Assembly (NCBI GenBank): GCA_040954595.2
Contig: CM082581.2
Span: 12,708,286-12,772,285 of the forward strand
DNA length: 64,000 nucleotides
Direction: 5' to 3'
DNA from: Balanoglossus misakiensis
Lineage: Eukaryota > Animalia > Hemichordata
Shown here: piece after piece, positions 39,301 through 63,779 of the stretch
How the letters are laid out: the number at the start of each line of letters is the position of its first letter
How positions within the stretch are numbered: the first letter of the stretch is position 1
Translations under genes and position numbers: made by a program
Notes under the pieces: generated by a model
What the model was told of the DNA's origin: nothing
The model's input: only the letters and a program-made list of their open reading frames with translations
The model's database searches: none

Positions 39301-42300
39301 GATGTTAAGTGCTTAGTGTCAGGTGTTCAAGCAATTGCTACATTTTCAAATATTAATAATTCAGTGACATAATTCCTTCGTGTGCACATACCAGCATTGT
39401 CACATCATATCCATGACCCAAAAGTTCAACATGCCTCACATAGCAGGAAAAAAAAGAACATTTTATTTTTCGGAGACCTTTTTGATATGTTCATAACTAA
39501 ATGGTCGGGACACAGTCCAATCCATGGTCGAGGTATTGGTCTTTTTCCCTTTAAAAATGTATTTTGCCTTATGAGGTAAGATGGCCGTGTTCTAGCAAAG
39601 TATAATGAATATATTTATGATTTTCTTGCCGAAACAAGGACAGTTTTATTTTGTTGATAAGGATGCATACATCAAGAAAAATGAATTAAGAGAAGAGGGC
39701 CAGGGAACTTACATGTAATTGCTTTTCATATCACAATAGGAGATCTATGTACAGCATGGCTTGCATAGCAACTAATCATTGTTGCAAAGTATGTCTGACA
39801 CATGTACCAGTATGAAAAATCAATCAGCCAGAATTAATGAATTTGACTTCAATTGAAAAGAGGTCGAGTTTTAGCCACTTTTAATTAAATCATTGTTGAT
39901 CAGTTTTGCAAAAATTAACAAAACAGATATAGATTTAAGCAAAAGTCTGATTTTTAGCCTGTATGTGTTTCCGTAACATGTGTGATATATACATGTACAT
40001 GTGCATATCAAAATCTGGAATGTTTTTGATTTTGTTGATCAATGATGTTTTGGTGTCAACATTGCTACCTCACTTAAAATACTCCTGTGCTTAGTCTAGG
40101 TCAAAGGTCACAATACATGAGAACGTCAAGCAATTTATATTATTTTGGAAATTTTTGGTACTTAGAATGGCATGGAAATTGTGTATTTTGCACAGTGACA
40201 TTGTGCAAATGACAAACTGAGGATAATCTCCTTGATATGCTCCCAATTCCTGTCACTGATATTTCTACATGTAAATGCTGTGTGGACAATCTAATCTTGT
40301 TACATTTTTTTGCAGCCAGTCATATAATAAATTAATGTGGAGAAGTTAGATGCTCATGAAATATTCAAGTTATTTACCTATGTTGATGAATAATGGATGA
40401 AAATGTTTATTTTTCAGTTTCGCTGGTCCCTTCCCAATGGCAACTATTAATGGAATCATCGAGAATAAAGCCCCAAAGTAAGATTTTGAAATCAACAATT
40501 TTTTTTCTGCTTATTTCTAATATAATATTAACAATTTGAATATTTAAAATATTGCACTTACCATTTCACTTATAAAGTTTCATCACATTTCTTTATTGGA
40601 AGAAGAATTTATTGACACCATGCTTCAGTGATCATTGAGGTTTACTGGAAGCATTTTTACATGTTTGTCCATTTAATTTATGCTAATGATTGTTCATATC
40701 ACCAGTCTACATTAGTGACATTTATGTTGTTGTTTTTTAACTCCACTGTGTAAAAGATGAATCTTTGTGAAGCTGTCTATAGTTACATGTATAAGTCGCC
40801 TTTTTTCACTTCATCCATAAGCCATCACTTTCTGAGAAACCTGTGTTCCGTTCATTCACACAATCATTCTACTTCACAGGTAGCAGGTTGTTTGTTGCCA
40901 CATGTAAACATTGTCACATGTGTATACTTGCTATCTGAAATACTTTACTTGATTATGGCCGGAGACAGAACAGCTAAATCATCAATATGCCCAGTGATAT
41001 ATTATTGTGTGTTTGATGGCCATTTGATTCTGTAGATACTTGTTTATAAATCATGTGTTTGAATTGAAATTGCCACTTCCACCATACTGCTAACAGAAAC
41101 TATATGATTATTTCCTGTATGGACAAGGCAAGTTTCAACACTCTTGTCTCTTAAATACTGAAGATATTTTCTTGATCATGTTCAACATCGCTGGGTATAT
41201 TGCTGATAGGCTGTCAATCACTGGATTTTTGCATGATGTATTATACATAAATCTCTATACATCACCACACAAGTGTTTTAAATTCTTCACCAGTAAGAGC
41301 ACACCACAGTGTTATGTTTGCTACATGTGTATATTGCTTGTGTACATTACATTGTTGTCCATAATTATCTCCATAGTCTCTTGTAAATGAAATGAAATTT
41401 TTATCAATACATTAATCAGGAAATAGTGGAAACTTATTATTAGACCTATTGTTGTCATCAGTGACAACCAAATTGCAGATTTGGTCCAATGTGTGACGGT
41501 ACAATATGGCAATCAATTGTGGGAAGAAAGATAAAAAAAATTGATTAATGCTACTAGGACCAAAATGGATTGGTGGTCAGTGTCACATTACCATACCTGA
41601 AAAGGTTATTGCAGTGAACCTGATGTACATACATGTATGTAGACACTTAAAGACAAAAATAAAATCAGGTCATCAGTGCTGCTTTTATAAAACTGGAAAT
41701 TAGAGTGCTTACTTGAGTGACCCCATGTTTCTATTCATTGTATGGGAAGAGGCAGATGTTCAGGATGTGCATAAATTTAGAAGCATATCATGTGCTTCCT
41801 GTATTGTGGTTTGCGCAATGTTTGTTCAGCTATTTAGGGCTTGCCTGGGATAGTCAGCCAGTTGTACATTTGTAGGTTGAAATGGATACCCACATCTACT
41901 GCCAAGGAGATGATCAAGCCTTGCCGATGGGTATTGTTTGTCAATTCTGTGCAATTATAATTGACCAGGATATTGATCACATTGTTGACAATATTATTAA
42001 TGGAGACATCACCAGAAGATTTAATTTTGAGCCCTAATTACCTGCTGTTGTCATCACTGACCTCTGCAATTATAGTTATGTATTCAAGTGTATCTGCAAG
42101 GCATAGGGCATTGTAATTTCAACACACTTCTATTGAGGAAAAAAAGACACATACTTGCGTAGGTTGTGATTGAAAAAGATGTCTGTGGTACTAGTGTCTA
42201 AATTTGGACTAGAGTGAATAATGCTTGTGATTCCTAACGAGGCAGAGGTCAGGCAAAAGTCAAATGGTGTCAGAAACGTGCGAGAAATTTCCCTTCTCAT

Positions 42301-45300
42301 TATGACAGTCCACTGGGAGTTGTGGGGAATAATAAATATGTAACTTAGCAATTGGCAGCTTGTTACTATATTTATACAGTGTGCTGTTCAAGTGATGTTG
42401 TGAGCTGGGTTATGGGTAAAAAGATGACCAGACAAGCTTGCTGGAAATTTCATCTCGGTTCAGTATTAACAACACAATCATGAATTTGCATCTATGCACT
42501 GAGTGACTGAAGAGTTCTAATTTTGGCTGGATACCAATATATTTGCATAAGTTTTTAATAATTTGATACAGTTGTCGCCTGCACAGCTGTTTACTCCCCA
42601 AAATCTACCCCAAAATGACAAAAATGAATATTACCGTAATAAGAATTGAAGATGTTTATTGGTTGTCCACAAATTACAGCCGTGTGTAGGGCTTTGTGTG
42701 TGAGGTATTGGACTAGCCAAAGTACGACGTCAGGTATCTATGGATTCAGTGCTATTTCTGAATACGTGTAACTGTTGGAGATCTATGAATATTGAATTCA
42801 TCAAAGTTCCGGAAGTATTACTGTATTCACATTAACATCAGAAGTGGCCATATGGTACATGCAAACAACACCGTGCAATAACAAATTTAATATGTATCCA
42901 CGTTTTCATTTGTATATTCTAATATTAATTTGCTGAAAGCTTGTCAGTGATTACATATTAATTTTACTACAGTGTAATCTCCATTGCAATATAAGCTTGG
43001 GTCAAATAACAAAATGTCGTAATAGCTTATTTTATATTGATCTACCGGTATGAACCTCTAACAGAGGGCAGCCAATCTAATTTTATGGTACTATACTGTG
43101 TATTGCGGTACATGTAATTAGATGGATCATTCTTTTATTTTATTCGCTTTCTCATTTTTTGAACTATTTTATTTCATTTTAATGTTTTTGTTTCTCCAGT
43201 TTTACATGTAGATCTTTGAAATTCCAAGAACAGATAGATTTTTATCAGCAAAGCAAGGGACTGTAACTTTGTTATCATGCTTCACATCTTCCACTGATGG
43301 CCTTGCATGACTGAGAAAAACGTCTACTTGAGAGTCATAGCATGCGAGCACTGTTAGAAAATCATTTTCTGCGGGAGTGACATTCAATTTGAGTAATTTC
43401 ACCTTTGCCCAATATGTTGTTTTATGCACTGTCAAAGTTGTGGCAAAATTCAACATCTGACACTCTTCCCCTGATTGGTTCCATTGAAATGCGCGACCGG
43501 CCTTTTTGTTAGAAATGATTTTCTCTTGGCAGCCTCCTCGCGCCTACTGGGTTCCATCCAGAGAATTAAACCTCCCAATATACAGAATAGAATTGGCAGG
43601 AAAATGATTTTGGCATTGCAGTCGATCTTAGCAGACCTTGATGACGTCAACAGGAAAAGTGGCACACTCAACTATAGGCGACCAGCATGCTAAGTCGCCA
43701 GCTGATGAATATGCAAGTGATCGGCAGATACTGTAACATACCGCTGTTCAAGTATGCCAGACACGTATCTGTCCTTTCTAAACAGAAAGCTTGATGAGGT
43801 GAATACCAATACACCGAGGCTGTTTCTCAGCAAGAGTTGCGCATGTGTTCTCCGTTGGTCAGGGAGCCAAACATTTCCAGCAAAACTGCAAACACACTTT
43901 TCCTTTAATTATCTGTCTAGTCATTTATTAAGTATGTAAATGTATGTCAGACAAAGCATTCTTTTGTATGTGTAGTGTTGCATGTTTACCTACGAAGAGC
44001 TGGTTTGGTTTCATTTGTGATGATTTGTTAGTGATGATATTCTCAGTATTATATTCTTTTTCAAATGAGACCAAAAGATATACCCTCTCTAGCCTTTTAT
44101 AAGGTTGGATAACATTTTTGATAAATTTATTTTTCTTGTGCATGTATATAGGCTTAGTGTTTGCTGATCACCAATATATTTGTTTCCATATTTGCACATT
44201 GAGTTGGACTTTGCTGGCGACTGACCCTGGGGTTTTGTAGTAACAATAGTATGGGAAAGAACCGCATTGTTCTTGTAACTACTAAGGTCATTTATTAATA
44301 CCCAAGCATCCCCATAAACTGCTCATTTAAATTAAACCCAACTGCCATGGTCCGTCCCGTATTGTACATCTTTCCCTAGAATTTGTTTGTATTCTCATTC
44401 TAGACACAGGAGAGATGGCAATGCAATGTTCTCAGCCTACCTGTTCTAATGTGTCAGCTGCTAAATTTGGAAATTGAGACATTAGCAGTGTGAACATCAC
44501 TCCTCTGTGTCAGGAAAAAAAAATTGTACGCCAGTAATGATCCGAGACTCTGATTGCTTCTTCGAATTATGTAACAATCACCAAGGTTATGCTCATAAGC
44601 CCAAGTTTTGTAGAGTAGTGATACCTAGACAGTCTAAGGTTATAGTAAATCTTTGAAGAAAATCATCCCAGCAGCATTGTGCTCAGGTGCAACAAACCAT
44701 GTTTTCTCAATTATTCATTATTGTCTTCATTGCTTATTTATATGGCAAATTATATGCAAGTAAATCCTTTTCACCAATGAATTTTAAGCTGTCGACTGCT
44801 TCAAGGCTAAGATTTTTCTCAGTCTTTTCTTCTTAATTTTTCCCGTTGGCTGTTGTATTAGAAGAATATTCATGGTAATGATGAATTGGCTGTCAGGCAG
44901 GATTCCCTTGTTCATTCTCTTGTTCATTTCTAGCAAGGAAGTGACTTATCGTAGCATTTGTTGTTTTGAGAATTTTATATACAGTTATATGAATGAAATG
45001 GGGTATATGATTTATAAAGCACTATTATTAGGACATATAGTACAAGGACAGTTATAGGTTTCTTGTTGTAGCTGCAAAGATGATGGAGGAGGCCTCTGAA
45101 ACCAGATATTATTGTATGCTAAATTTATGGAAGTAATGGTAATTAAATGATTTGAATTCTCATTCAGCAGCCCAAGTGGGCAGCTGCTGTGAGGTTTATC
45201 ATTTCTTTTCCCTGACAAACAGATTGTCATCCATCCAAGCTGAAGTGTCCTCCTGGGGCCCATTAGTAAATTTGTGGTTTGTGCTCTGGACACATTTGAA

Positions 45301-48300
45301 TCCCCCCCCCCCCCCCCCCCCCCACCTTCCTAGTGTTCAAAGATGTACACCTTACAAATTGTAGGCAGCCTTCATACTGGATTATTTTAAATTCCATTAT
45401 TAACAATCTGTGATCAACCACTTAAAATGGGAAGCAGCAAGCACTAGTCACCTACAGTCTAACAAGGTACATGTATCTAGAATTTCATCTTTGATGGAAT
45501 GTGTGCGCAAGTCCATTAGCCGACTGTATCTGTAATGTTGAGATAGCCTGTACTATGGTAGCATGTTCATTTTTTTCTAAAGGCACTTTGTAGATATGCA
45601 TCCAGCGCACATTTATCAGATTTTGGAGTTGTCACAGATGTGACAGTTTCATAAAGAATATTGCCAGAGCGTGGAATATGGCTGCCCACCGGAGAGATTC
45701 TCTATTAAAGCCAAATCCTTCAATTGAGACATCTCAGCTTGACAACATATTCCACTCTTGTTCTGCAACAGCTGATCGCGGAATAATAACAGCGACGGGC
45801 TGACGCAATTTGTCAACACTGTGAAAATTCACTTGATGATTTAACAGGAGTTCAGACCTTGGGTTTTTCAACCACCTGAAAATGCCCATTTAGAAAATGA
45901 ATATCAAAGTCCCTAATGTAGTTTGAGATCTCTGCAGGCACATGCTACTGTGTGTTAATTTAACAATGCAAGCCTTCCATAAAACATGCAATCATAATTT
46001 AATGAAAGCAGTGCTGAAACTTTTCCAGGAAGTGCCCATTGAAATGTATTCCTCACTGTTGCCATGGAGCTGTATTAAATTATAATAAGTCAGATTGCAT
46101 CAGAGAGAGTGGGGTCAAGGGTTAAGTGCCTCAAAGATTGCAACAGCATAGTACAAAGAACAGTAAATATTTTCATTTTAAGCATTATGTCTAATTTAGT
46201 TGATTTTAGCGCATACCACTGTGAATATTTTTTCTTTGTGGTGGAATTTTAGTCTGTTAATGTTATTTCCATCAGCTGTTTGCACTGTTAGATGTATGGC
46301 TAATGGATGTCTTGAGAGAAAAGCTACAATTATTGACGTCATAGCCATGGCAACTCATAGAAAGCCTTATCAGCATGCATGACAAATCTTTCCTGTAGCT
46401 GCTTGGTCTTAAAGCAATTTTGCTCAGGTTCAGGAAATGGAATCTATAGAAGCTCCAACATGCATGATAATGCCAGTTTGGAATACTGGCTGCAAGTCCG
46501 GCAGTTAGTGTGGAAATCGTGACCCTATAGCTTTCCCAGGAGAAAAATTAAATCAATCCAGTAATCATACCTGACTGTGCTTCAAAGACAGCATCATTTC
46601 ACTGCTTCTAGATATTTGAGCCAGCAGTGTAGAATTGGCCAGAAAATTGTAAAGATCTAAACATTGACCGTATTATTGTAATGTTTTACAAAATTTTATC
46701 TTATTCTTGACATGAAGGTCACCCTCATGGGAGCTAGATGATAAACAATATTACACATCATTTTGAAAAAAAGAATTGTTGATGAGGTCACGTCAGTATA
46801 CTGTTTGTGTTTGTTGAGCTTGATGTGAAATGTACATGTACGTTAGTTTCTACTTTTGCCTGCATTGTAATGGTATCAAGATAAACAGGTTCAACAAATG
46901 ATTAATTTTTATAGGCATGTTATGTGAAAATGGTTAGAAAAAAAGTGTTGTTGTGCTAGAACATCCAATTGAAATTGTGTTCTCGTTGCCAACTGGCTTT
47001 CATTGTTGTCATACAGTAAAGAAATGAAAGTGTTATTTGCCCGACTTTTTCTGAGTTGCAGCAATATCACATAACTATGTCCAAATGAGGCGATTACGTT
47101 GTGATGAAATTTCTTGTAATTTGAGTTGCTTTGTGGCAAGGGCACATAGTGTATGAATAGCTTAATAAACAATGTCCCCTGCAGGAACACAATTGCAAAT
47201 CCAATTATCCAATTCAAAAGAAGGTAGCCATTAAATTGAACCGAGGGTGGCCGCTCATATTCAGTAGCTGGCAGTATAGTCAGGAAGTGCCGCCTTTCCA
47301 ACATCAAGAAGGTAACATTTGTAATCGAAAGTTACTTCTTCCAAATCCAGGTGCTGATTCAATCTTGTGCACTGAAAGGAACCAAATGAATATGACCTTC
47401 ACAGTATTACACTGTCACTTCAGATTTATTCCTGCATACGTGTGTACGTTTCTGAAGATAGAGATATTAAGCATATATAATCCCAGCCTTCAGTGTGTGT
47501 CCAGTTGAAGTACCCTGTTTTTCTCATCACTCAATTTACCAGCATTGCTTCACTTTCACCAATTCTTGTCGGCATTCCCAAAACAACCAATTTATCTAGC
47601 TAAACTTTATTTCCACAAGTAAATTATACTTTTGAGAATGTCCAGTGAAAAGGTAGATATAAGCTCAAACTGCCTTATTGATCACTAGACTAGTGAACCT
47701 TCCCACGAATTTTCTTTCAGTGTAACACAACAACCCACACCATTCTTCCTCAAGCCAAAACAAAATCCAATCATGTTCTGGCTTGATTGAAAAGTCTTTT
47801 TTGTCTACCTTCAGCATCATAATTGCACAATGTGGAGTATCAGAAGGGATGAAATCAATAACCATACTTACCGTATTTACATAGCAGATTGTGATATATC
47901 CCACAGAATTAATGACTACTAAAAATAGCAAAAGAAAGACGTTTTCCACAAAATCAATACAGCTGCTTGTCAGTACAGATTGGTATTTTCTTCAAGTATG
48001 AAAAAATATGAATGAAAATTGTGTAGATTTCATGCCAAATATGTGCTCAAGCAACAGACACATATTTGCACAAAAATCTACTACCCAAAGGCATTTTCAA
48101 CAATAACAGTCAATATTCATTTTCTGCTACAAGTTTTGTTGGGCTGGCTATTTAGAAAGCTTTGATGTGTTGCAGTAGCAGTGTGCTGCCCAGGGACCAT
48201 GTTATTCTTCTCGCATCCAATAGTGAAAATGAAAATTGAGTTTTATTCCCATCCAGATGCTGCCTCAGCCTTGTATCTCTGATCTCCGTATTTCGCCATT

Positions 48301-51300
48301 TCCATACAAATTCTGTGCCATTAAAACTCAAGTGGGCATATACTGTACATGAGAGCTCCATATTATTCATGGAAAGGAAAAAAAATCTCAGCACGTGCCA
48401 CCCACGGTGCCTCTTCCCTCCATTCTCAGCAGAGACAAACATTCTCATCCAGAAACATTCTCCCTCCTCAGTGGGGAAACAGCATTTCATGTTTTGTCAT
48501 TGTAATATCGGCAATATAAAGAAATTTAGGTTAGCTGTGGGAAGCTGAACCCAATATTTAGGGAAGCCAATCACTGTCTTGCTTTTATCCAAGAATGCAG
48601 AATAAGGACGTTGTTGGTAAAATGGCCTGGCTAATTTTATGAATGCTCTTTTTACTAGTATTTTTTCTCAGAGAGTCATAACTTCAGAATGAGAAGTACA
48701 TGTAATCCTCCCAGCTCTTAATCATGAATTACTCTTGCTACAGCACAAATGATGATTTGATTTGTAAGGCTGATGCTTCAATTAATATACAAAGCTCCCT
48801 GCTTAATTTTAATCCAGTCCTTCAGAATCAAATTAAATATCCATGTAATCAGCCATCACCAGTCGTTGTGGCCTTAGAGAAGATTTCTTGCATTGCTGTT
48901 GAGTGCAGCTCAATCAGCTTCATTGATAATATCTGTGAAATTTGTCAATAATTAATCTCAGTCAGCCTTCAAGGTGATTGACAGTCGTTAAGAAACTTTT
49001 TAATATGGTTACTGGAGCATTATAACTTTCTATGAATAATTCAAGTTGTAATTTTTTCCCATTTACAGATTTGAAAGATCTTACGATTGGGTTGGTGGTA
49101 TTGTAGATTTCTATCAGCCCATTCTGAGATTTAGCCCTTGATCTGTCAATTAGATCTACCCAGTCCTTCATAAATACTGATTTTATTTCTCTCTCTCCTA
49201 ATGCATGCAGCAAGGACATATGGACGCAGACGAGGTATTTGATTTTTCCCTGTTTACTATCTATCATGTGTTAATGTGTGTTGCAGTGCATTTTAATGTC
49301 TAAAAAATATATGTTTCATTTTTGTTCATTTCGAAGTGTTTGGCTATAAAAGGAAGTTATAACACATGGTCATTTTGCAGGTGTTCATACAAAATTGGGT
49401 ATTGTGTTCATTGGTAATTCTAAGAATGTTCTCCCAAGTGAAAGTAAGAGTAATGATAAGATCACTGTTATTTCACTGCGATTTCCTGGCTTCACAGCAA
49501 ATCTGAGACATTTCAGCACCTGCCTAATCACAATACAGCTCTTTCATCATGTGCAGTGTTACTGTTCTACTGTATTTCAAATCTTTCTTCCCAGTATTTG
49601 ACAAATGCATCTCACCTTAAGTCATTTTCCCACTGATAACCCCACCCGGTATGATTAGTTCCTACAGACTGAAGTCAAGGGGAGGGGGGAACTCGTTTGC
49701 TTTGTAAGAAATCATAAACATTTCACGTTTACTTGCCTTACTAAGTGCTAGATTGTGGTTTGCCATGTGGCAAAAATGTGGCAGAGATCACAGCCAGCAG
49801 GTAAACACTGACAGATTTGCTGATAGATATATGGACTTAAAGCCTAAAGACAACAGTGTGAATGTCTACAGCTATAAAGAGATAAGAGTGGTTTACCAAT
49901 TCTCTGCTAAGAAGCCCTAGACCATGGTCCTCATTGTTTACACACTGAAGTGTAATTGACAAGATTAACTGTAGCATAACAAAATAAACAAAGAACCCCA
50001 GGGTAAATAAACATGGCCATAATGGGTACTTCAGTGACCTGTTAAACCACAAAAATGCCAAAACCCGAGGTGACCTAAAGACAGGGGTTATGTCAATCAA
50101 CCAATTACCTGCTGCAGTACCCTGATGTTGTAATTTCAAGCTTCATTGCTTTTCTGTAGGCTGCAGGTTAGACTTTTCACACTAGTGATGTTAAACAGCA
50201 GCTAAGCCCTACGCTAGCAATTGGGTTATCCCTCAAAGTGATATTGTTGATTGTGTGACTACAAATTGCCTTTAGATAAAAGGTTAAAAGCCATTTTAGC
50301 TTGTATACTAGTGCCAAGTAATGGTCTTACTAAAAGTCATGTTCAAAATAGTCTTCTGAAAGCAATTACATGTACTACGTTATCAATTCTCAGTCAAGCG
50401 ATCTGTTAAAAATCTTCCCTTAGAACATTGTCTCTGTAAAAGTTGCTGAATTTAATTTAAGGTAGTTAACGAAAAACTGGATCTACAATTCCACTCGCAT
50501 ACAGAAAAAAAAACGTTTGACCTTGTGGGAAATATTTGTACTAATGGCAGGCAGTTTCAGCTCTTTCAGCTGCTATTACTAAACTGAAATCTATAATCTG
50601 TAAAGAGATAGAAAAAGAATTCATAGCTTAATGTATCTGGGGACTGGTGGCTGTGATTGGGATTTTGTACATAGAAATTGCTAGGATTCCGATGGAATTG
50701 GATGTTAGGCAGGCTGCATGTAGTTCTTTAGAATTGAAAGTCTTTTTTTCCCCCTTCCAATTTCCATTAACATCAATGGGTCAATCAGATTAGGGTAGTG
50801 GTAATCCCTTTAATAGATGGTCAGATTAAAGCTGCGTATAAGTAACCCCTTTAAGATCAGCCATGACACCCCAATGATATCACAACACATTACTGCAATT
50901 ATGGATTAAGGTGAGGGAAACTCAGATGTGACAGGAACTTTTCCTGAAAGCAGTTAAAATTTGGAAATTGTGTTAATACAAAATTATGGAACATTATCAG
51001 AGCAGAAATACAACTTGGAGATACATTCCAATACATGCAATAGTGTAAAGTGTGAAAATTTTACCTTTGTGTGTTCAGGATCTCTCCAAACACAAATCAG
51101 ACTTGAGATGTCGGCCAACATAGTACACTACAAAAGTCTAACCCAAATTCTGTTAATGTTGTAAATGTACAGTTTCTCAACCATTTTGCAAAATGACATT
51201 TCAAGCGCCGTGAAAAGCTACAATGGCTAGCAAATTCCCGTGTGGTATTGTTAATTCATGTCTGAAGCATTGCTGAAAAGGTCAGTGCTGGCATGCCTGC

Positions 51301-54300
51301 CAGGGATGTTTCTATTCAGGAGAAAATTCACTGCATCAAGGTAGTCGCAGCTTGTTTCCTGAAAAACAGTCTTCTATTAGCCTGACATATAGGCCAGCTT
51401 CTCCCTTAGGATAACATGGCCAGGTAAAATTTCTACAGCTTCCTTCAGTGGATGCTTAATGACTTGTGTGAAACCAGTACATACAAGATGCACTCATGAT
51501 GAAAATGGAAATTTCATCTTGTGGTTCATGAAAGCTAATCTATTTTGGAGGCCATGCACTCTCCTGTTTTGAAGGATTACATGGAAACTGTTTTCTCAGA
51601 AATTGTGTTCAATCTTGAGAAACAGTCAGTGCCAGCATAAGACAAAATTGCTAACAGACATTGTGCACGTACATGTAACATTAGAATGATGCTGCAGGTG
51701 AATTTTGGTCATAAGCAAGTCCTAACATATGGTCCCATCAAGACATCTCTGTGTACTCTATCAAGACAAGGTCAAGGTCATTGGAAAATGTGTTCATGTT
51801 ACTTTCATTTATCCCCTTCTGGAGAATAGCCAGATTTGTTCATATTAAAATCATAAATCTGCCTCCAGGTAAATTATATTTATAAAGCATATATTGTTTT
51901 GTGTGTAAAGCTGTGTGTTATATTGGCTAGGCAGGCAAGTCTTGTACGGATGTACATGTAGGATTAACATTTGTGTTATATTTTCTCATACCTCCTCTAC
52001 CATCACTGTATCCGTGTAGGAATGTATTCTTCATCAATTAATGTTATTTAATATTTTAGGTAAATGTACCCATCACTAATTAAGTTTGAATGGATTTACC
52101 AAATATCGGGCAGATATTAAAACAATATTTTTCTTCTTTTTTTTTGAAGGTCGGAGTCCCTTTTTCCCCGGTGATGATACTTGCTTTTTAGACGACGGTC
52201 ATGGAGCAGACCAGATTGTACCATCCATCAACTCACCTTCAAGAGGCTCACCAAAATCAAATTCAGACTATCCTGGTGAACGCTACTCACGTAAAGTGTT
52301 TGTGGGAGGCTTACCTCCTGATATTGATGAAGGTGAGTGCTCATTGCATCTTTATTAATGACAGTGTCGTTGAAATCTACTTTATACGCTGCAATCAGTC
52401 ACAATTTCCATTTTGAAATCTGTCTTTTATCCCCCCATGTGTATTGCTCATTTCCTGTTGAAATATGTGACTTAATCTCTAATGGAGAGCACCTTTTACC
52501 TGTTAGACAATTTTGGAGCCCATTTCTCAATATACATGTATTCTGGATACTCACACACACACACACACACACACACGCACGCACGCACGCACACACACAC
52601 ACACACACACACAAATCAGTCCTTGTCAGCCATTTGGCGCATGAAATTGTTCACGCATGCTGAAATCACAACATTGTAAGCTAGCATTGAGTTGGCTAAT
52701 TATATTGATATCAACTGCATTGAAAATATTACACTGTACAGTGTGTGAGGTCAGGGATCAAAGAGGTATACATCTGTCACAGAACTTCAGGTAGCCAGTA
52801 CTTTGAACTTTACATTTTAACTCCTCCAGCCATTCTGTAATGACGTATAACCCATTTCATTTGGCTGTACTGAACGAAAACTGGCATAATGTCGAGTTTA
52901 ATGTTGGGGAATTGGTGTAAATCTGAATGAATGAATATACATGTTGTTGCAAGATGGGTCATTTGTCTTTTTCATTCCTCGCTCTGGTGAAGACTTGTCC
53001 TCGTTCATCCCGAGTCATTCTTGTATTGAACAGATATAGTATTGAAAATGACAAATTGCAAGGTGTTCAGCTGCTACCCACTTGGGCAAATTACAGGATT
53101 GAGCCGAACATTGGGGGTATAGAATTTCATAATTAGACAATGCAATGGAGGTGGAGACTGCACTTGCCAACGTGTAGACATGCTTTTCACATGAAATGCA
53201 TCCTTGTCAATTGACAGCAGTTACAGCTAGGCATTTAATCGGTGATTTATAGAAAATACTCCAAAACACGTTTTCATGCTCATATTGGCTAACAGAAGGT
53301 TTTGCTTTGATCAGAACAGACATGTGAAATGAGTCGTGGCATTTCTCTTGTTGATTATCTGTCAGTGTCATGCCATATTCTGTATCTTTCGGAGAAGGCC
53401 ATTCAAATGCCTGAATTATGGATTAGATGAACATGATGTGGGTGGAAAATTTATTACCAGCTGATGTGCACAGGGCTGAATTAAGTCAATTTTCAGTTAA
53501 GAATGAAGGTGGAGTGTCGCAGATGAAGGAGCTGGACATATAGGCACTGTTAAATATAACGAAAAAATGCTTAATTCCGAAAAGTACACTGTATAAATGG
53601 AGAACCAATGGCAGAACTAGAAATATTCATTGCACATTTCTGTTGGTTGTCACGAGCCTTTTAATATCCCTACCTTCTGCTGTATCTCCATAAATAACCC
53701 CATTAACTACAGGAAAGAGCATGGTTAATTACAGTAAAAACAAAACCACCTGTTTGCTTCTTCCATACTCCGAAATTATGTACGTGAAATACAGTAGGAA
53801 TTTGAAGTTACAAACGACAAAGAAGACCGCAGTTACATCTAGCCAGCCATGACCGGTTAATATATGTACAGATATAATTTATTACATTACAGGAATGATT
53901 TTAATTAAACTGCCAATATATTTTATTCTTGTTTTGTGAACCTGATAATAACAGTGTATTTAATAATATTTTTTGCTTCTGTGTTGGTTGCAGAGGAAAT
54001 AACTGCAAGTTTTCGCCGATTTGGCAGCCTTGTCGTGGATTGGCCCCACAAGGCTGAAAGCAAGTCATACTTCCCACCTAAAGGTATTTAATTTGTGCAG
54101 TCTATTTTATCATTCATTGTGGCATGAAAGTCCTGTATGCATTCAAGACAATCTGTGTATGATATAGAACAGCTGTTTGATGTAGGAGATAGTGGCAGAG
54201 ATTTGGACCTTAAAAAAGATAGCGTTAAAGAAATTTCTTTCAAGTGAATGCTTCAATACTTCTGAGGTTGTCAGTGTTCTGCTATTCTGTAATTATTCAA

Positions 54301-57300
54301 ATGGTTGATATGGACTTGGCTTTTTATAGGTTATGCATTCTTGCTGTTCCAAGATGAGAGATCTGTCCAAGAACTGATAGACGCTTGCATCAAGGACGGA
54401 GACAAACTCTACCTTTGCGTGTCTAGCCCAACAATCAAGGACAAACCTGTAAGTGCCAGACTTCCTATTGAGAGGCCTCTCCCAGTTCACTGCTGATAAT
54501 CAAATCAGGGTCCCATCATAAAAGCACTATTTTTCCATTCAAGATTTTAATTTCATTTATCAACGTTGCGTCAGTGTGTAGCTTGCACTCATCTAGCAGA
54601 CCAATCAGATTGGTTTATTTCGCAAACTGGCTGTTTAAACATATTGATGCCTTGGCGTATTTTTTCCCCTTTTCCGCAAATTGATGTAAATGTTACAGCG
54701 ATGTATTTCAAATGCAGCTCCTACTGAAGTAGGGCTGTGGATTAGTGGCTTAGTATTGTGAGCACCTACGTTTTAGTTGAGGTAATTGCAATAACTGTGT
54801 GTCCTGTCTGAGCCACACTTAAAGATCTATAATAAAGTGCTCTATGAATAAGCATTAGGAGTTCCATTAGGCCCTCAGACACAGTATGAAAAGCTATGAA
54901 GCCATTTGATTCGAACACCAAATTAGCAACGCACAATGTGGTAAATCCCACTTCTACGAAGCATATCAGAGAACATTTTGAAGAAGAAAAATTCCTAGCA
55001 GATCCTCAAGACTTATCTGTGTAATCACCAATTTGCAGTGAAAACTAGAAGCAAGTCGTGCAGAAACTCAGATCGCATTTGTTTTCCTTTATACGGCAGG
55101 TACAAATCCGTCCTTGGAATTTAGCAGACAGCGACTACGTTATGGATGGATCCCAGCCGCTTGATCCAAGGAAAACCATCTTTGTAGGTGGTGTACCAAG
55201 ACCTTTGAGAGCAAGTGAGTCCAAATTCTATTAGTCTCATTATTAAACCTAGTATTAAGGAGGGTTGGGAATGAGAATTAATAGAATCTCTATGTCCTGC
55301 GGGCCCTTAGAAGAGACACCATAGGCAAGGCAGGGAATTGCTAGCTCATACAAGCCACAGATCTTCATGAAGAGAGCAAAAAAGGTGCAAAAGATATGAT
55401 ACCTCATCAACTATACCCCATTAATATTAGTGTCACCATTGTGTTTTTTCACTCATTTGTCACTTGGTGTTGTCAGTACCATCCAAAACAATACCAGAAC
55501 AACTATTGAGGTTTATTTAAGTATATATGGCCAGTTCTAAGCAAATGATTATTTCCCAGTCGATATTGAAATAACTTGTATTGTTTTCAGTTGAATTGGC
55601 GATGATAATGGACCGACTGTACGGTGGAGTGTGCTATGCGGGTATCGACACTGATCCTGAGCTGAAATATCCCAAAGGAGCTGGACGGGTAGCTTTCTCC
55701 AATCAGCAAAGCTACATAGCTGCCATCAGTGCTCGTTTTGTGCAATTACAACATGGTGATATTGACAAGAGAGTAAGTATAATAATGCAAGGTCATTATA
55801 GTGTGATTTCATCCACGTGGTGCAAGTGTTGAGAAGGATGCTTGAAGCAAAAACAGGAAATGAACAGGAGGTTTCCTGTCATTGGCTTTACCCACTGTGG
55901 TGTGTAGTTAAAAGGTCATTTTTGTGCGCAACACAGGGATCCCACCAACGCAAACACCTCAATCAGTTTCATATTTTATTCCCACCCTTGTTAGGTAAGT
56001 CAGGTCACAAGTTTCAGCCCACATAAGGATTCTTCCCACCAACTCCTGAGCCTCAGCTTGAGGAGAACTAGAGATAACATTCATTTCTTGTATTCTATAC
56101 ATGCAGTCAGAACACAATCCTATATAATTAATACACACAATCGCTCATTGAAATGACATTGGAGTAGAAAAGATTGACAAAAATTGTCAGAAGCCTAATG
56201 AAATCATTGTTTCAATGTACATTCTTGGAAACATTCCTTTTGTACATCAAAAAGTGAATTGCAATAATATATGTGATTGCATGTATTCCTTAATACAATT
56301 TTGTTGTCAATTAACAATGCTTGGCAAATTAAATGGCAGTTTTCATTAATCCAAATAATTTCAGCCCACGGCTACTTTTGATTGGTGCAATCAAAATAGA
56401 AACAGCAGCAGTTGTTAAAAAATGTGTTGTAAGTTTGTCTTCCGGTCTTTTGTTGGGGGATAAAAACATACCTGATGCTGCTATAGAAACAATTCAGCTA
56501 TGTTATGGATTTTATTTCAACATATGGCTCTGACAACAGCTTGAAATATATTGATCAGTGCTTTCAATTGAGGTCCTATTTCAAACAAAAGCAGAGAAAA
56601 GTGTCTCAAGTGATGGAATTCACTTCACCTGACTGCTTTCATTTTTTTTTTCACAAGAATTATTATACTGACAAATTTTTAGTCTCTTCAGATTAGTCGT
56701 TGTATTTCTATTGATCTATGATGTTGCAGATTTTCTATATAGCATTTTGTACAAGCTTTATTCATATAGATAATATCAGGGCTGCCATCCCCTTAACTCC
56801 AAATCATTAGGCAATGTAATGTGCAGACATATTCTGTATAATTAATTTAAGGGAAGTGGACATCTGTAGTAAGGTTTAGAGTATTTTTGTGTGGACATCA
56901 TGACGCATGTAATATAAATGTCACGACATGCTCAATTTACTGTGAATCCATACATATTTGTTTGATATTCAGAAGTCCAAACAGAACTTAATTACTTGGG
57001 GTCGAGTTTTTGACATCATGTTCAAAAGTCGCATGTTGACATTCACAACGAATCATATACTATTGACAAGCTCATCTCTCAGCTGAAGAGGCTAACATTT
57101 TTTCATCAGCAGAAATCACCAGAACAGGGGGTTTGCTTCATTCTCCTAACACCACCACTAGTATTAGAGCTATCCATATATCTAAACACTGATCCTTGCT
57201 GCAAATATGTGCTATTGTACAATGTGAACATAGCTCAATCTACTGACAAGTTTCCCTATATCCCTTGATAGCTATCTCATCACACCATTGGTGATTATCA

Positions 57301-58950
57301 GTCTTCAATTCAACTTTTTTCTATGCGAAGACACGAACCATTGTATGTACATTATTGTCAAAGCCTACCTAAGCATAATTTATCCTTTCACAGAACTCTG
57401 TATTCAATAAGACTTGCACTGCATTTTTCAATTTCTTAGTTCTCAACATATTTCCACTCAAAACATGAATGTCAAAGATGAAGTTAATATTGTGAAGTGA
57501 CCTAAATATCAAAATCTGAAGATATTACGATAAAATTAATATTCTGACTGGAATCATAAATGCTAAATTTACTGCTGCTAAAGTGATGTGCTTATTTCAA
57601 AATTATTGTTTTTCATATAGGAGGCAGATCCAAAATATCATATAGAAATAATGTTGAAAAATTAATGTGTGTGAAAAATAGTGATGAATGAGTAATGATA
57701 TAACCAAACACATGAACACAAAAATGTCAAAATGACAGTATGACTAGATATTGCTATTGGAGTACTTTAATATTGACAAGCTGTCATTTATGTATTTGAA
57801 TTTTGTATTGAACAATATGACAGTTAGCTGTATATTTATCTATTCTTATTAACATATTCAAATCCCAAACATCTGGCACAATGACAGTATGATGGATACT
57901 GGTTGCCTGTATGTACACATTAATGTTTCCAATTATAGATTGACAATTCAGGAATATACATGTATGCTGTGCTAGGTTTTATGGACCTGTATATAAACCA
58001 TAATATTTTAGTACATGAACATTCAATGTGCACTTCTGACATGAGGCAAATGAAATGTACCACACACTGGATTGATCAACTCAAATTTATCATACAAGCA
58101 TCTTAAAAATTGGCTTGTCTCTTCCCTGACAGTTGCCAAATGAGCTTTTTTTATATTCAGCTCAAGAAATTGCACTCACTCACAGTAGTGTGCTGTGTTT
58201 CTCATCAACAAAGATGATTTGAGAATTCTGTGTTCAGAATACCACAGTATTAAATGTTTGCAAGAGTTCCCTGCAAAGAACAGGTATCCAATCACTTATG
58301 TTATCCATCAGTGTCAGCACTCGATGAAAAAAAACCCATCCAAGGCTGACAAATGCTGTGACTCTGGAAATGCATACGAGCCAAATGCAGGGCAGCAAAC
58401 ATTGTCCTCTTGAAATGAAAGAATGTACAGGAAATTAGTTCTAGCAGGGAATGGTTTCAGTCATTTTTCATGACACCCATGCCTAATAAACAAGGTTGAG
58501 AAATATATTTTAGTACCAGTAGGAGATAAATGTTGCATAATATCGGTTTTCGTCATTTTATGCAAATGACTTCTGTTTGAAATGTACAGAAGATGGCACA
58601 TGTTCTATTCCCCTCTTGGCCCAAAGGCTGCTTTATGTTAACATTTTTTGCCAAAAGGGACCTGCCAATACAAACAGGGATCATGAATGTACAATAATGA
58701 GTTTTGTGTTGCTTGTTTTCAGGTTGAAGTGAAACCCTATGTACTGGATGACCAAATGTGCGACGAGTGCCAGGGAGCTCGCTCTGGTGGCAAGTTTGCA
58801 CCCTTCTTCTGTGCCAACGTCACATGTCTGCAGTACTACTGCGAACAGTGTTGGGCCACCATCCATTCCCGTGCCGGCAGAGAATTCCATAAACCACTGG
58901 TGAAGGAAGGAGCTGATCGTCCACGCACCGTGCCCTTCCGCTGGTGTTAA
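32353..58950 (+). CDS. CPEB4: CPEB2/3/4-subfamily (orb2-like) cytoplasmic polyadenylation element-binding protein. Spliced CDS join(32353-33336,35431-35545,[40418-40477],[49211-49234],52150-52332,53994-54083,54330-54448,55100-55214,55591-55772,58723-58950); 671 aa without the optional exons, 679 aa with the microexon, 699 aa with both
   Basis: N-terminus MGEYGFG resembles CPEB4 MGDYGFG and MQDDML resembles the CPEB3 start. RRM1 YSRKVFVGGLPPDIDE, RRM2 KTIFVGGVPRPLRA, and a ZZ finger ending ..PFRWC*. All introns are GT-AG with consistent phases. Probably a co-ortholog of vertebrate CPEB2/3/4, so the symbol is nominal. Confidence 0.96.
32947..32979 (+). repeat. Coding (CAG)6 CAA CAG (CAA)3 tract encoding polyQ11
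   Basis: Read directly from the sequence inside CPEB exon 1. Confidence 0.95.
35431..35545 (+). CDS. CPEB4: CPEB coding exon 2 (DRNTQTYDTMKFPALEHHLMDIMRTPADQHQHPDSHLR-G), 115 nt, phase 0 to 1
   Basis: T-rich acceptor TTTATTTTTTTATCTGGTAG| and donor AG|GTTTGT. The peptide aligns with CPEB4 DRPRTFDMHSLESSLIDIMR. Missed by the ORF track. Confidence 0.9.
40418..40477 (+). CDS. CPEB4: Candidate 60-nt frame-preserving cassette exon of CPEB ((V)SLVPSQWQLLMESSRIKPQ)
   Basis: Acceptor TTTATTTTTCAG|, donor |GTAAGA, length divisible by 3 and open in phase 1. It sits where vertebrate CPEB2-4 have a short alternative exon. I recognise no peptide homology. Confidence 0.45.
45302..45323. repeat. Poly-C homopolymer (22 nt)
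   Basis: Directly visible. Confidence 0.9.
49211..49234 (+). CDS. CPEB4: 24-nt CPEB microexon encoding (A)RTYGRRR(G)
   Basis: TTTATTTCTCTCTCTCCTAATGCATGCAG|CAAGGACATATGGACGCAGACGAG|GTATTT, phase 1 to 1. The peptide equals the ARTYGRRR microexon of vertebrate CPEB4. Confidence 0.95.
52150..52332 (+). CDS. CPEB4: CPEB exon: linker and start of RRM1, 183 nt
   Basis: GRSPFFPGDDTCFLDDGHGADQ...ERYSRKVFVGGLPPDIDE; T-rich acceptor ending GAAG| and donor |GTGAGT. Confidence 0.96.
52552..52613. repeat. Compound (CA)n/(CACG)n microsatellite in a CPEB intron
   Basis: Directly visible. Confidence 0.95.
53994..54083 (+). CDS. CPEB4: CPEB exon (RRM1), 90 nt
   Basis: EEITASFRRFGSLVVDWPHKAESKSYFPPKG; TTGCAG| ... 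|GTATTT. Confidence 0.96.
54330..54448 (+). CDS. CPEB4: CPEB exon (RRM1), 119 nt
   Basis: GYAFLLFQDERSVQELIDACIKDGDKLYLCVSSPTIKDKP; TTTTTATAG| ... |GTAAGT. Confidence 0.96.
55100..55214 (+). CDS. CPEB4: CPEB exon (RRM1-RRM2 junction), 115 nt
   Basis: VQIRPWNLADSDYVMDGSQPLDPRKTIFVGGVPRPLRA; GGCAG| ... |GTGAGT. Confidence 0.96.
55591..55772 (+). CDS. CPEB4: CPEB exon (RRM2), 182 nt
   Basis: IELAMIMDRLYGGVCYAGIDTDPELKYPKGAGRVAFSNQQSYIAAISARFVQLQHGDIDKR; TTTTCAG| ... |GTAAGT. Confidence 0.97.
58723..58950 (+). CDS. CPEB4: CPEB last coding exon (ZZ zinc finger), 228 nt including TAA
   Basis: VEVKPYVLDDQMCDECQGARSGGKFAPFFCANVTCLQYYCEQCWATIHSRAGREFHKPLVKEGADRPRTVPFRWC*; acceptor TTTTCAG|. Confidence 0.97.
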   Translation, partial: VEVKPYVLDDQMCDECQGARSGGKFAPFFCANVTCLQYYCEQCWATIHSRAGREFHKPLVKEGADRPRTVPFRWC

Positions 58951-61900
58951 ATTTACATAGAAATCCTAGAAGATGCACATATTGTTAAACTGAAAGTTCA
59001 GGTGAACATACCCTGACAACAGGCTCTGTTATTTTAAGAATACATATTACTAGTATTTTTCTCATTACATTCTATGTGATAGCATTCAGGTAATGCTGTA
59101 TACATGTAATATGATATGATCCCTGCATGATTTTTTGCATGAGATTTGAATGTAAGTATTTGGTCAAGAAAAATTGAAACTCCTTTAGGAGAACCTTATT
59201 TTGTGGCATAAGTTATATTCTTGCCGACTAATGTGACTATTGTATTTAAAAGACAAAATACCATGGATGAACTATTTTTTGCTGCATGTCGCATCATATT
59301 TCTATACAAATGAGTATTTTTTGTATTTGTGATCTCTATGGACAAATCAATGAAGGATGTGTGTGTGTTACATTACATGTCGGTGGCAGAGAACATTGGC
59401 TGGGTTCTCTGCATAGACATGTATATAGCTTAGAGAATTACCCCCAAACTTTTTTCCATTTACCATACTATAGGGAGGTTGTACCAGTTTCCTATTATAC
59501 CTAGACTGGATTATGAATTTACATTTAAAGAAATAAAACTACTCAGTTCAACTTCAAGTATAAGCTAATTACAAAAAATCGCTGTACTATTCTAGAAATT
59601 TACAACGTCAGTTACTGCCTAATTTAAATGAGAGAATCTCAAACACAATGTAGGTGTCTTTTTGTGAGTGCCATTTTTTTCCATGTGTAATATACCAAAG
59701 ATATAAGTACTACAACAGTGTTTTTTTGAAAATTATTCAAAATAACAACTACCGTGTAGCAAAACAATTAGGCCACGATTCTACATCATGTGGCTTTGTG
59801 TGTGATTGTATTTGTATCAAATTTTGACAAATGCAATTTTCAAAATCGACTTTGATACCATTGAGTTTGTGAAGTGTGTGCTACCGATTATAACTCATAC
59901 CATTTTTGGTTGAAAAATATTCTTATGTATACTTTGAGCTGCAATATTTTTTGTACTTTGGATTTTTAGCAATTTTTGCATGTTTATCAGCAATTCGCTC
60001 TATGTCTCAATGGTACTGAAGCCATTTGCTTCTGTAATTTAAAAAAAAACTTCAAAAAAAAAGTCAATCACAGTGACTGAGGAAAAAAGCATGTTTTGTC
60101 ATTTGTAAAGTATATAGATTAAGAAACACCAGAAACTCAATTCTTCAACAATATACAATAGCCAGACAAGCTGCATGTTTAATATTTACAATTCAAGTTT
60201 ATTGAATTTTCCTCAATCCATTCTTTGATCACGGAGATTGTCTTAGTTGTAGAACATAGAGATGTGTTGATAAACACGTATGTGCATGCCAATTACATAT
60301 TGTGCAATCTAAACATTTTTGAAAATTACCTTTTTTTTTTTGCCGGAAGGCAAGCTTTACTATGATATGTGTATGTGTATTTGCCTGCCATTTTCATAGT
60401 AGTGGGTAAATGGTGACTAGGCGTAGTTTGTAGAAAATAATTTAGCAGTCAGTAGTCATAGAAATATACAAGAGCCAGCCAAAACTTCAATGATGGTGGA
60501 AACAGCTGTTGTATGTGTTTACACGGCTGTATTTGTTGAAATTGGAATCACAGTTCATGTGGTCCAGTCTGCGAATACCCTACAGCGAATCAGGGCAAAT
60601 TCGTCATTACCTTGTTTTTCGGAAATTTTCTTCTTTTCTGTTGTAATGTTGTTCGGGCAGAAGGCTGCCAATTCAGCTTTGCAGGAAAGCCAATTAAAAT
60701 TGGGAATATATGGGCGGAGTAGGATGTTGTCAGACTGGCCGAGTTTTACATGAAAAGCCCAGGGAAAGAACTTGTGTGATAGTTGATGCGGGTAACAACA
60801 TGAACCAAGAATAATGAAAGTCTTGGAAATCATTCTAACAATTTTGTCATGTGAGTTCATTGTAGCACACAAGTATTTATATATTCTGTCTCTGTGTTTT
60901 TATTAGTCTCTTTGATGTCTGTAAAATATGTGAATTGTCTTTATTCTTATTGCCGTGGTACTAGTTTACATATTCTAACTATTTTTGTGCAAGATGTGTT
61001 AAAAATTCAGATTCAAGTTTTGTGCACACTAATATTTAAGATTATACAGTGCACTTCGATGTACATGTTTGGATATGATGAGCTGAATAGAAAGCGGTTT
61101 TTTAGATTTTCCTCCCTTTTTGTACACTTGTATTTTTCTCTGGATTTACAGAGGAGAGGCCGCATTTTCCTATTTGCACCACTTCATTACTAGCTTTCAT
61201 ATTTTGGTCATTCCACAGAAGGTAAATATTAAATTACAGTATTTTTGGTGCCACAATTTCTAAAACCAATTTCAGACAGCATTCATCCTTCACGGTTTTC
61301 AAGCAGACATTTTATAGCTGTATTTTTTCTGATATTTTGTAGATCTTTTTGCTAATGTTTACCTCACTTTTAGTCAAGAATTAGGAAAATGAAAAAAAAA
61401 ATCTTTTGGATTTATTCATACGTATCCCGCACTGAAATTTGTGAGAAAGAAATATAAGATTATTAATTTAAGAATTTTGCAATCTGATGATTTAAAAAGA
61501 TATTGGGTAAAATGATTGTTTTATTTTTCTCATTTATTGTTATTGAGCCTTTTGCATAAGAAGGAAAAAGCTTTTAAACCTTTTTTATTATAATATAGCT
61601 AGTTTGGAAACCCAGAGTTAATATATCTTTAAACTTTGTAATTAATGTTACATTGTTCTCCAGATTTGTAATATTCCATTTTGTATTTTTTCGAGTTTTT
61701 GGACAGGTATCGACACGACATTTGACATGTACAGGGGGCATGCTAATAACAGGGTATTGAGGTCAAAAAAAAAGAACCCACTTGGAAGGTTGCATGGTGC
61801 TACACACAAAAACACAGAGACAAAAAAAAATGCTATGGGACATAATTTGTAAATCAAGGATGGGAGAGTGCTTTTATTTTACATATACATCACATGAAAT

Positions 61901-63180
61901 TTAACAATCAGGGCATCAACTTCTTAATTATTTTTATGTGCAATATTTGAGGAAGAAACACAGATGCACCTGTGTTTGTGGAAAGTTGTTACACCAAATG
62001 CAGTACCCTGTTGCCTCTGCCCCATTATCTTAGTATAACCAATCTTTGGAGCAAGCTTAGAATTAGTCATTTTTGTATGAGATTTCTAGTAGTTAACTAT
62101 AGGAATAGATAACAAACTTGTACTCCACTTTTTAAATATTACAGAGATTTCCTATTTTTGTTCATTAGGGTTTTCACCATAATTGTTTATTTTTACTTAA
62201 CGTATTCCCCTTGGAGAAGGCATTATATTTTTTGCTTTATCATCTATGTGCAAATGTAAGTTTTAATTTTATGAAATTAATATATTGTTCTGGAAATACA
62301 TAATTGCTCATGTGTTATCAAAATCAGAACCTTTTATTTCAAAATTTTTTCAACAGTTACTATTTGAGAGTTTAAAAGAGCAGAGTTTTTCTGTTCAAGT
62401 TGTGCTTATGATTGATGTGCAAGTTGTGTTGGATAAAAATAAGTACCACAGAATTTAGTGGTACCAAGTGTGACAAGACTCCTCTAGAAGGTGCTTAGTG
62501 AATGTATGATTTTTAAAAAAGGTGTTAACTATTTGGAATATCCGCTGTTTTGTGGCTGATTTTATTATCGTCTTTTTGTATATGGGGAAGTTTGTTAGTA
62601 TTTTTGTTGGATTATTATAAAGTCAAACCAAAGTTTCTATGTTTTGTTTTTAAAATAAACAAACCTACATTTTGTATCGATAGTTTATTTCCCAGGTGTG
62701 GTGGTTTTATGTTTATTTTTGTTTATTTGTTTGTGTTTGTTTTCCAGTTGACATTTCTATACCCGACTGACTAAGCAGAAGGAGTATCATGAGTTGACCT
62801 GCTTGAAAATAGAACAAACCAATGAATTTACAGGACTCATTAAACTGCACCAATCAGAGAGGTCCTTATAAAACCTGTTCACCCTCATTGGTTCTTTCAC
62901 GTTTGATTGACAACACTGACAATGCATATTCATGATACATTTTCTCTGCTGGATTATATAAATTCATTACGATGATTTTTTAGAATTTTGAGATTTGGTC
63001 TATATATTTGTTGAGATAATTTAAAAACAAAAAGGTGACTTTGTAATTCTACTTTTTTGCTGCTAAGTATTTATATAATACTTTTTCAAATTAATTTTTT
63101 GAAATCTTTCTAACTTTTATGGACCCTTTTGTGTAATCTTTTAGCAATTAAGAATAAAACATGAATTAGAAAACTTGTTG
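58951..63180 (+). other. Probable long U-rich 3' UTR of CPEB
   Basis: T-skewed plus strand with many TTTTAT elements, and AATAAA at 59532, 62654 and 63153. The end point is inferred from the last hexamer followed by TG-rich sequence. Confidence 0.6.
63153..63158 (+). terminator. Candidate distal polyadenylation signal AATAAA
   Basis: AATAAA is followed about 16 nt later by TTGTTGTG and preceded by the CPE TTTTAT at 63115-63120. Confidence 0.5.
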
Positions 63181-63779
63181 TGATTACTAACTTTTACTAA
63201 CCAATGTTTAGGTCTGTTTACTAATTGACTTTACTTGGACAATTTTAGTGCTTCCAATTCTTGTTTCATCATCAGACCTTCTGACTAATATCATTAATAT
63301 TACTAATATTGTACTATGCTTTTGCTAGTAATGAGTAAAGTTCTTTGTAACAGGCTATTTGTCTCTCTATATTTATTCTCCTGTCTTCATACAATTGAAT
63401 GTTTCTTTTCACTCTTTTCTTCAAATGGGTATCTGTCTAATTATTTATCTTGGATGTTTCTTCTATCAGTACATGATCCTTGAACTGCTTGTTACATCAC
63501 AACCGTTACTTTCTCATCATCATCATCACATTAGGGTTTGGTTGCATCTGCTCAACTTTTACAAATTTCACTCAGGGTATAATTTGAAACGTTTTAGAGA
63601 CACTATTTTCCTATATGGTAAACACACAGCATATGAATCCTTTGAGTTGCCTTGCGTCCACACACACTGAGTTTATGTATAGGCGCTGACACAATGGGTT
63701 GAGGAGCGGTGCTAATCCTTAGACCGGCTCTAGTCTGGCAAGTAAGTCATCTCACATCTGAGAAGTTTGGCGACAAATT

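Follow-up and report, generated by a model that had tools for sequence, protein, structure and literature searches.

A 24-nt microexon of the vertebrate CPEB4 type in a CPEB2/3/4-related gene of the acorn worm Balanoglossus misakiensis, and its probable age

The window analysed here is a stretch of 64,000 nt from Balanoglossus misakiensis (GenBank assembly GCA_040954595.2, contig CM082581.2, positions 12,708,286 to 12,772,285 of the forward strand). It contains a CPEB gene, the features of which are listed in Table 1. The rebuilt gene has ten coding exons with GT-AG ends at all internal junctions, and encodes a protein of 699 aa with no internal stop, or of 691 aa with the frame intact when the 24-nt microexon is left out. 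As exons 3, 4 and 5 each begin in phase 1, the frame survives the omission of the microexon, of the 60-nt exon 3 or of both. The 699-aa model shares 670 identical residues with the 691-aa CPEB2-like protein of Ptychodera flava (P0001) and 634 with the Glandiceps protein, and the Pfam domains RRM_7, RRM_1 and CEBP_ZZ were found on the near-identical P0001. Rfam, applied at gathering thresholds, gave 0 matches in the 64-kb window.

A long AT-rich region (58951-64000) lies past the stop codon. An E3 ligase gene of the RING-variant class (Pfam RINGv) has exons on the minus strand, at 4887-6796, and points away from the CPEB gene. From its sequence we take this ligase to be MARCHF5. In humans, CPEB3 and MARCHF5 are arranged head to head, and the CPEB-MARCHF5 adjacency would be an old linkage.

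Table 1. Features of the CPEB gene and its microexon, in window coordinates
Feature	Position	Strand	Remarks
Coding exon 1	32353-33336	+	Q/P/S-rich N-terminal region, predicted disordered by composition; 91 % identity to Ptychodera flava CPEB2-like X1 (P0001)
Coding exon 2	35431-35545	+	115 nt; covered by spliced contigs of a close relative
Coding exon 3	40418-40477	+	60 nt; positional counterpart of the 51-nt CPEB4 exon 3 (C-region)
3' splice-site region	49163-49210	+	45-nt AG-free zone; putative regulatory function
Coding exon 4 (microexon)	49211-49234	+	24 nt, phase 1, whole codons RTYGRRR
5' splice site	49235-49240	+	GTATTT; contigs of the relative continue into exon 5
Coding exon 5	52150-52332	+	Starts G-R-S-P, leads into RRM1
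Coding exon 6	53994-54083	+	Exons 6-10 jointly encode RRM1, RRM2, ZZ domain and stop
Coding exon 7	54330-54448	+	As exon 6
Coding exon 8	55100-55214	+	As exon 6
Coding exon 9	55591-55772	+	As exon 6
Coding exon 10	58723-58950	+	As exon 6

The tandem RRMs and ZZ domain, together with a tree grouping with CPEB2/3/4/Orb2, place the gene in the CPEB2/3/4 subfamily. In a quick maximum-likelihood tree of 44 proteins, hand-picked at roughly one per lineage from the 372 fetched, the two hemichordate proteins group with those of echinoderms (SH-aLRT 97) and fall outside the vertebrate CPEB2/3/4 clade (SH-aLRT 100). They show no grouping with CPEB4 that leaves out CPEB2 and CPEB3, and identification of the gene as CPEB4 proper was rejected. 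The gene is, on this tree, the pro-orthologue of vertebrate CPEB2, CPEB3 and CPEB4 together, and the name CPEB4-type, used in a preliminary description of this locus, is too narrow for a gene that is equally related to all three.

The microexon is bounded by AG and GT, the pyrimidine tract upstream of it ends in CAG, and the introns on both sides are phase 1, so that the frame is kept with or without it. It lies downstream of the short exon 3 and upstream of the exon leading into RRM1, its length is inside the 3-27 nt range of eMIC/SRRM4-dependent neural microexons, and its peptide fits the pattern R-[ST]-[YF]-G-R-R-R with the same residues as human nCPEB4. There are 69 AG-24nt-GT sites in the interval 35546-52149, of which 46 are open in phase 1. 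When these sites were scored against RSYGRRR (BLOSUM62), the microexon reached 34 and the next best site 5, and under a first-order Markov model the number of motif-bearing sites with splice ends expected by chance is 3.7e-7 per 16.6 kb. That the site might be a chance look-alike in an intron, never spliced, could be argued from the fact that the spliced contigs described below come from a relative and not from this exact species. However, given the chance expectation, splicing in the relative and annotation in two hemichordates, this reading has next to no probability and is effectively refuted. We regard the microexon as a real exon with near certainty.

The 24-nt frame-preserving exon and the start of the next exon at 52150 are thus as first described. 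The surrounding 16.6 kb, taken at that time to be otherwise intronic, includes the 60-nt exon 3. This also affects the peptide, originally given as (A)RTYGRRR(G). The seven whole codons stand, but the first residue is T when the 60-nt exon is included, and A would need a joint from 35545 to 49211.

Splicing was examined in one close relative, for which 24 runs were listed at 0.17 of the words, none of them recorded as RNA. Eight were aligned to the window at 80 % likeness, the RNA status of runs being judged from spliced joints. In three runs (X8, X13 and X18) the joint 40477 to 49211 (GT..AG) is followed by the microexon and then exon 5, and in a fourth (X22) a single contig runs without a break from exon 2 through exon 3 and the microexon into exon 5. 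Partial support came from X9, where a contig begins inside the microexon and joins exon 5, and from X2, where a contig passes through exon 3 and stops 15 letters into the microexon. Run X6, which lacks spliced joints and has the microexon in one continuous piece with intron on both sides (49149-49293), appears to be genomic, and X17, for which no contig aligned, is evidence neither way. The microexon is therefore included in six of the eight runs, or 6/6 of those with a spliced contig, which come from six studies. Exon 3 is joined directly to the microexon in five of these six and is covered by a separate contig in the sixth. As to the junctions named for checking in the preliminary description, 40477 to 49211 and the joint from the microexon to exon 5 were recovered in the relative, but 35545 to 49211 was not found among the joints listed. 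Nor was the skip joint 40477 to 52150 found among them, and we note that such contigs drop minor forms.

RefSeq includes isoforms with and without the microexon for the CPEB2-like proteins of both Ptychodera flava (X1/X2, XP_070539951.1/XP_070539952.1) and Glandiceps (XP_077992370.1/XP_077992371.1). Skipping is thus at least modelled in hemichordates, and the expectation that gene predictors would miss so small an exon was not borne out. The contigs of the relative and the Ptychodera model are probably not independent, because the junction letters of the contigs fit the Ptychodera protein.

Conservation of the introns flanking the microexon was considered as special evidence and set aside, since the piece in X6 (11 other letters and 5 gaps over 49149-49293) is matched in quality, roughly, by other intronic pieces listed. 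Intronic stretches at 36452-36664, 45472-45666, 46021-46135, 46301-46489, 47088-47252, 50508-50629 and 51164-51310 align with contigs of the relative at about 85-93 %, while much of the intron is unaligned, and these stretches are possible conserved non-coding elements.

The acceptor of the microexon contains CTGAT at -34, a TCTC repeat tract from -23 to -14, CTAAT at -13 and TGCATG at -9, the last giving UGC at both -9 and -5. It therefore has the cis features of eMIC/SRRM4 exons, namely a UCUC tract, a UGC near the 3' splice site and a CUAAY branch-like motif. UGCAUG is, in addition, the site bound by RBFOX. The pattern UCUCUC-N1-50-UGC within 12 nt of the AG, a limit that was chosen after the microexon site had been seen, is present at one of the nine true acceptors of the gene, that of the microexon, and at 0/74 pyrimidine-rich decoys. 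A long AG exclusion zone is a further mark of such exons, and the 45-nt zone of the microexon is the third longest of the nine acceptors, those of exon 3 (46 nt) and exon 7 (53 nt) being longer. The UCUCUC..UGC element has been described for SRRM4/SRSF11 (PMC12628316) and an element of the same type for Drosophila eMIC exons (PMC8797185), and inclusion of the vertebrate microexon, me4, falls on SRRM4 depletion in N2a cells (PMC11711090). The cis signature favours neural regulation of the window microexon. If the microexon were strictly limited to neurons, however, assemblies of bulk samples should lack it, and its inclusion in every informative run (6/6), with no skip joint among those listed, is evidence against neuronal restriction, tempered by the loss of minor forms from contigs. 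Neural enrichment of inclusion in this species appears about evenly balanced.

The same counts bear on a different reading, under which the microexon is a true homologue of me4 that is included broadly and almost constitutively in acorn worms, with minor skipping, strict limitation to neurons being confined to vertebrates or to certain lineages. Besides the uniform inclusion in the relative, this reading could draw on a survey of tissue-specific splicing in bilaterians, which describes rapid turnover and names exons of APBB and MADD as the sole bilaterian-ancestral neural exons (bioRxiv 10.64898/2026.09.05.749416, main text). However, skip isoforms are annotated in Ptychodera and Glandiceps, and the eMIC-type signature of the microexon acceptor is absent at the other eight. 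The CPEB transcripts in bulk samples may also be mainly neuronal, and contigs keep one path. Broad inclusion is a possible but less favoured account.

The age of the microexon was assessed from predicted protein pairs of bilaterians, rather than from the DNA of other invertebrates. Isoform models with and without it are present in many phyla. The 372 fetched proteins include 26 isoform pairs whose two members are set apart by one 8-aa indel, in all cases 42-54 aa before RRM1. Five pairs are from vertebrates (hagfish, catfish, two cartilaginous fishes and rat) and 21 are not. The latter are from Ptychodera, Glandiceps, Branchiostoma (3), four spiders, Tachypleus (2), Centruroides, Lineus (2), Lingula, two Octopus species, the chiton Liolophura and three bivalves, and 18 of them conform to R-x-[YF]-G-[RK]-R-[RQ], the three bivalve pairs being diverged at the same position. 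The junction changes from T..G to S in hemichordates, catfish and cartilaginous fishes, which requires phase 1 in each. The three bivalves (P0325, P0326 and P0328) have kept an 8-aa cassette but lost most of its arginines, and ticks (P0270 and P0281) have a diverged Gly/Arg-rich version; these are natural variants with which to probe what the arginines do. Short segments, unrelated in sequence, occupy the place of exon 3 (40418-40477) in proteins of amphioxus, chelicerates, nemerteans and insects as well.

Motif counts cover named proteins that have an RRM1 start, sorted manually into groups, and the proportions are biased upward, as one protein search drew words from the microexon region. The motif is present in 18/35 proteins from chelicerates, 10/15 from amphioxus, 5/7 from nemerteans, 4/6 from cephalopods, 2/5 from hemichordates, and 1/2 each from chitons and brachiopods. 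It was not found in the predicted proteins of pancrustaceans (insects and barnacles, 0/33), echinoderms (0/9), gastropods (0/15), bivalves (0/12), an annelid (0/1) or a named myriapod (0/1), which is not proof of loss. The arthropod proteins P0008 and P0034, which have the peptide, fall outside the barnacle-insect clade in the quick tree.

This patchy spread, particularly the zero counts in pancrustaceans, echinoderms and gastropods, could be read as an 8-aa insert that vertebrates, hemichordates and a number of protostome groups gained separately at a hotspot of splicing, and recurrent neural exons at equivalent positions are described as common (bioRxiv 10.64898/2026.09.05.749416, main text). 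However, length and position are equal and the peptide near-identical in chordates, hemichordates, chelicerates, octopus, chiton and Lingula. As seven identical residues arising several times over is very improbable, and loss or missed annotation is simpler, we give independent origin very little weight. The comparison supports homology of the window microexon with vertebrate CPEB4 me4 and the B-region of CPEB2 and CPEB3, and we hold common ancestry with me4 with high confidence. As there are isoform pairs in protostomes, the origin moves back to the protostome-deuterostome ancestor; the simplest reading of the distribution is that the microexon was probably ancestral to both branches, with losses or missed annotation. 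It is thus older than the vertebrate CPEB2/3/4 duplications, as had been proposed, and by more than was claimed. The very strong constraint that was also proposed holds in many lineages, but not in the three bivalves with a diverged cassette, nor in insects, barnacles, echinoderms and gastropods, where none was seen.

What the microexon adds to the protein was considered in the light of CPEB4, in which me4 provides arginines that bind a cluster of histidines (residues 229-252) and condensates stay reversible (PMC11711090). No CPEB4-type histidine cluster was found in the N-terminal domain of the window protein, where 16 of the 439 N-terminal residues (3.6 %) are histidines, scattered and never more than 5 per 22. 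The maximum per 24 residues is 1-5 in 13 invertebrate inclusion proteins, compared with 9 in 4/4 bird CPEB4 proteins and 10 in skate CPEB2. Hagfish reaches 5, and another three CPEB2/3 proteins of vertebrates reach 3-4. Damselfly proteins (P0248 and P0333-P0337) are the reverse of the hemichordate protein, with long histidine runs just before RRM1 and no microexon peptide in the listed isoforms. That the arginine patch nevertheless works exactly as in human CPEB4, binding histidines and preventing irreversible aggregation after pH shifts, would fit the seven whole codons, which give the human me4 peptide, the mechanism demonstrated for CPEB4 (PMC11711090) and the scattered histidines. However, we consider this unlikely in view of the low histidine maxima here and in the other invertebrates relative to bird CPEB4, and of the damselfly proteins. 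Because the cluster is missing, the CPEB4 condensate mechanism does not carry over directly to the window protein.

A conserved serine lies three residues past the microexon. It is retained in 29/41 non-vertebrate inclusion proteins, and is missing from the ten of amphioxus (0/10), one of a chiton and one of a spider. Phosphorylation of S419/S420 in mouse CPEB3 by PKA and CaMKII, both of which prefer the second serine, S420, depends on the B-region (PMC4767366). The retained invertebrate serine is followed by proline, the second serine of the CPEB3 site is missing here, and nemerteans have Q at -3 of the serine. The sequence R-x-x-S-P would suit DYRK/CLK-type rather than PKA-type kinases.

On balance, we favour the view that the microexon is an optional, eMIC-driven cassette of a CPEB2/3/4-type gene, inherited from the protostome-deuterostome ancestor, that adds an arginine patch. 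A splicing activator of the Srrm234/eMIC (SRRM4) type would switch it on, the TCTC tract and UGC at the acceptor recruiting eMIC-type factors and leading to higher inclusion in neurons. With the microexon included, the regulatory N-terminal region would gain a patch of four arginines about 52 residues ahead of RRM1. Three of them, at positions -3, -4 and -5 relative to the conserved exon 5 serine, may change the kinase context of the latter, and inclusion would also add a basic/aromatic contact patch to the disordered region. Together, the altered serine context and the contact patch could tune when CPEB represses or releases its mRNAs. We rate the chance that the patch acts on both the junction serine and condensate contacts at roughly even, and the histidine-cluster buffering known from human CPEB4 probably came later, as a vertebrate use.

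CPEB is a regulator of translation, and the CPEB4 microexon has been linked to autism. More tentatively, it may be a third bilaterian-ancestral neural microexon, a neuron-enriched eMIC cassette that was lost in insects and is older than the histidine cluster. If this ancestral neural reading is true, the cassette was kept in acorn worms, amphioxus, octopus, brachiopods and spiders, insect loss explains why fly-anchored surveys missed it and why it is absent from work on Orb2, and the older function, likely control of the adjacent serine, is still used by human CPEB2/3/4. Deeply conserved microexons are rare. The bilaterian survey, which names two ancestral neural exons, needs an insect member to make a bilaterian-ancestral call (bioRxiv 10.64898/2026.09.05.749416, main text), and such a rule would overlook a disease-linked microexon that acorn worms, octopus and spiders have kept but insects seem to have lost. 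As they lack the CPEB4 histidine cluster, invertebrate carriers separate the ancestral role from the buffering of aggregation that has been proposed for autism, and they provide unduplicated-gene models for studying the microexon. Existing tissue RNA-seq from octopus, centipede and amphioxus can address neural specificity directly.

The literature search found no report of the microexon outside vertebrates, though Torres-Mendez 2019 (PMID 30833759) and Mackensen & Irimia 2025 (PMID 40393474) may list it, and the peptide string was found in one preprint only. The supplements of bioRxiv 10.64898/2026.09.05.749416 and of PMC11711090 may also list the microexon in invertebrates. CPEB and orb2 occur 0 times in the main text of the former and 0 times in PMC8797185, and passages of PMC8011179, PMC10735318, PMC12871342 and PMC12626424 have nothing on an invertebrate microexon. 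A segment of Cpeb2/3/4 conserved across bilaterians is described in PMC10735318, but it is in the 3' UTR and is not this microexon. What is already known, then, is the exon itself, annotated automatically in relatives, and its known homologue; what is new is how deep it reaches, into both branches of the bilaterians, and that it occurs apart from the histidine cluster of CPEB4.

The closest known system is me4 of human and mouse CPEB4. ARTYGRRR distinguishes human nCPEB4 from the delta-4 form at the corresponding position (bioRxiv 10.1101/2023.03.19.532587), the 24-nt exon 4 of human CPEB4 follows a 51-nt exon 3 (PMC12628316), and the same microexon has been noted in CPEB2 and CPEB3 (PMC11711090). 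In common with me4 (PMC11711090, PMC12628316), the window microexon is a frame-preserving fourth coding exon of 24 nt after a short exon 3, with the residues RTYGRRR and a UC-rich tract upstream. Unlike CPEB4, its host is a single CPEB2/3/4 pro-orthologue with no histidine cluster, and the junction reads G-R-S-P rather than G-Q-S-S. While me4 is neuron-restricted and SRRM4-dependent, the likeness of the window microexon to it is one of sequence and cis motifs.

With the B-region of mouse CPEB3 (exon 7) and its CPEB2 counterpart (PMC4767366), the microexon shares an 8-aa cassette that puts arginines before a serine of the next exon. However, position 3 of the peptide is T here and S in CPEB3, and the residue corresponding to S420 is proline. 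The X1/X2 models of Ptychodera and Glandiceps in RefSeq contain the same exon, and are automatic models without comment on homology or regulation. Like the microexons of APBB1/2/3 (6 nt) and MADD (9 nt) in the bilaterian survey (bioRxiv 10.64898/2026.09.05.749416, main text), that of CPEB is shared by protostomes and deuterostomes, but it is longer, is located in an RNA-binding translational regulator and was not seen in insects. The APBB and MADD exons were called bilaterian-ancestral under a requirement for insect support.
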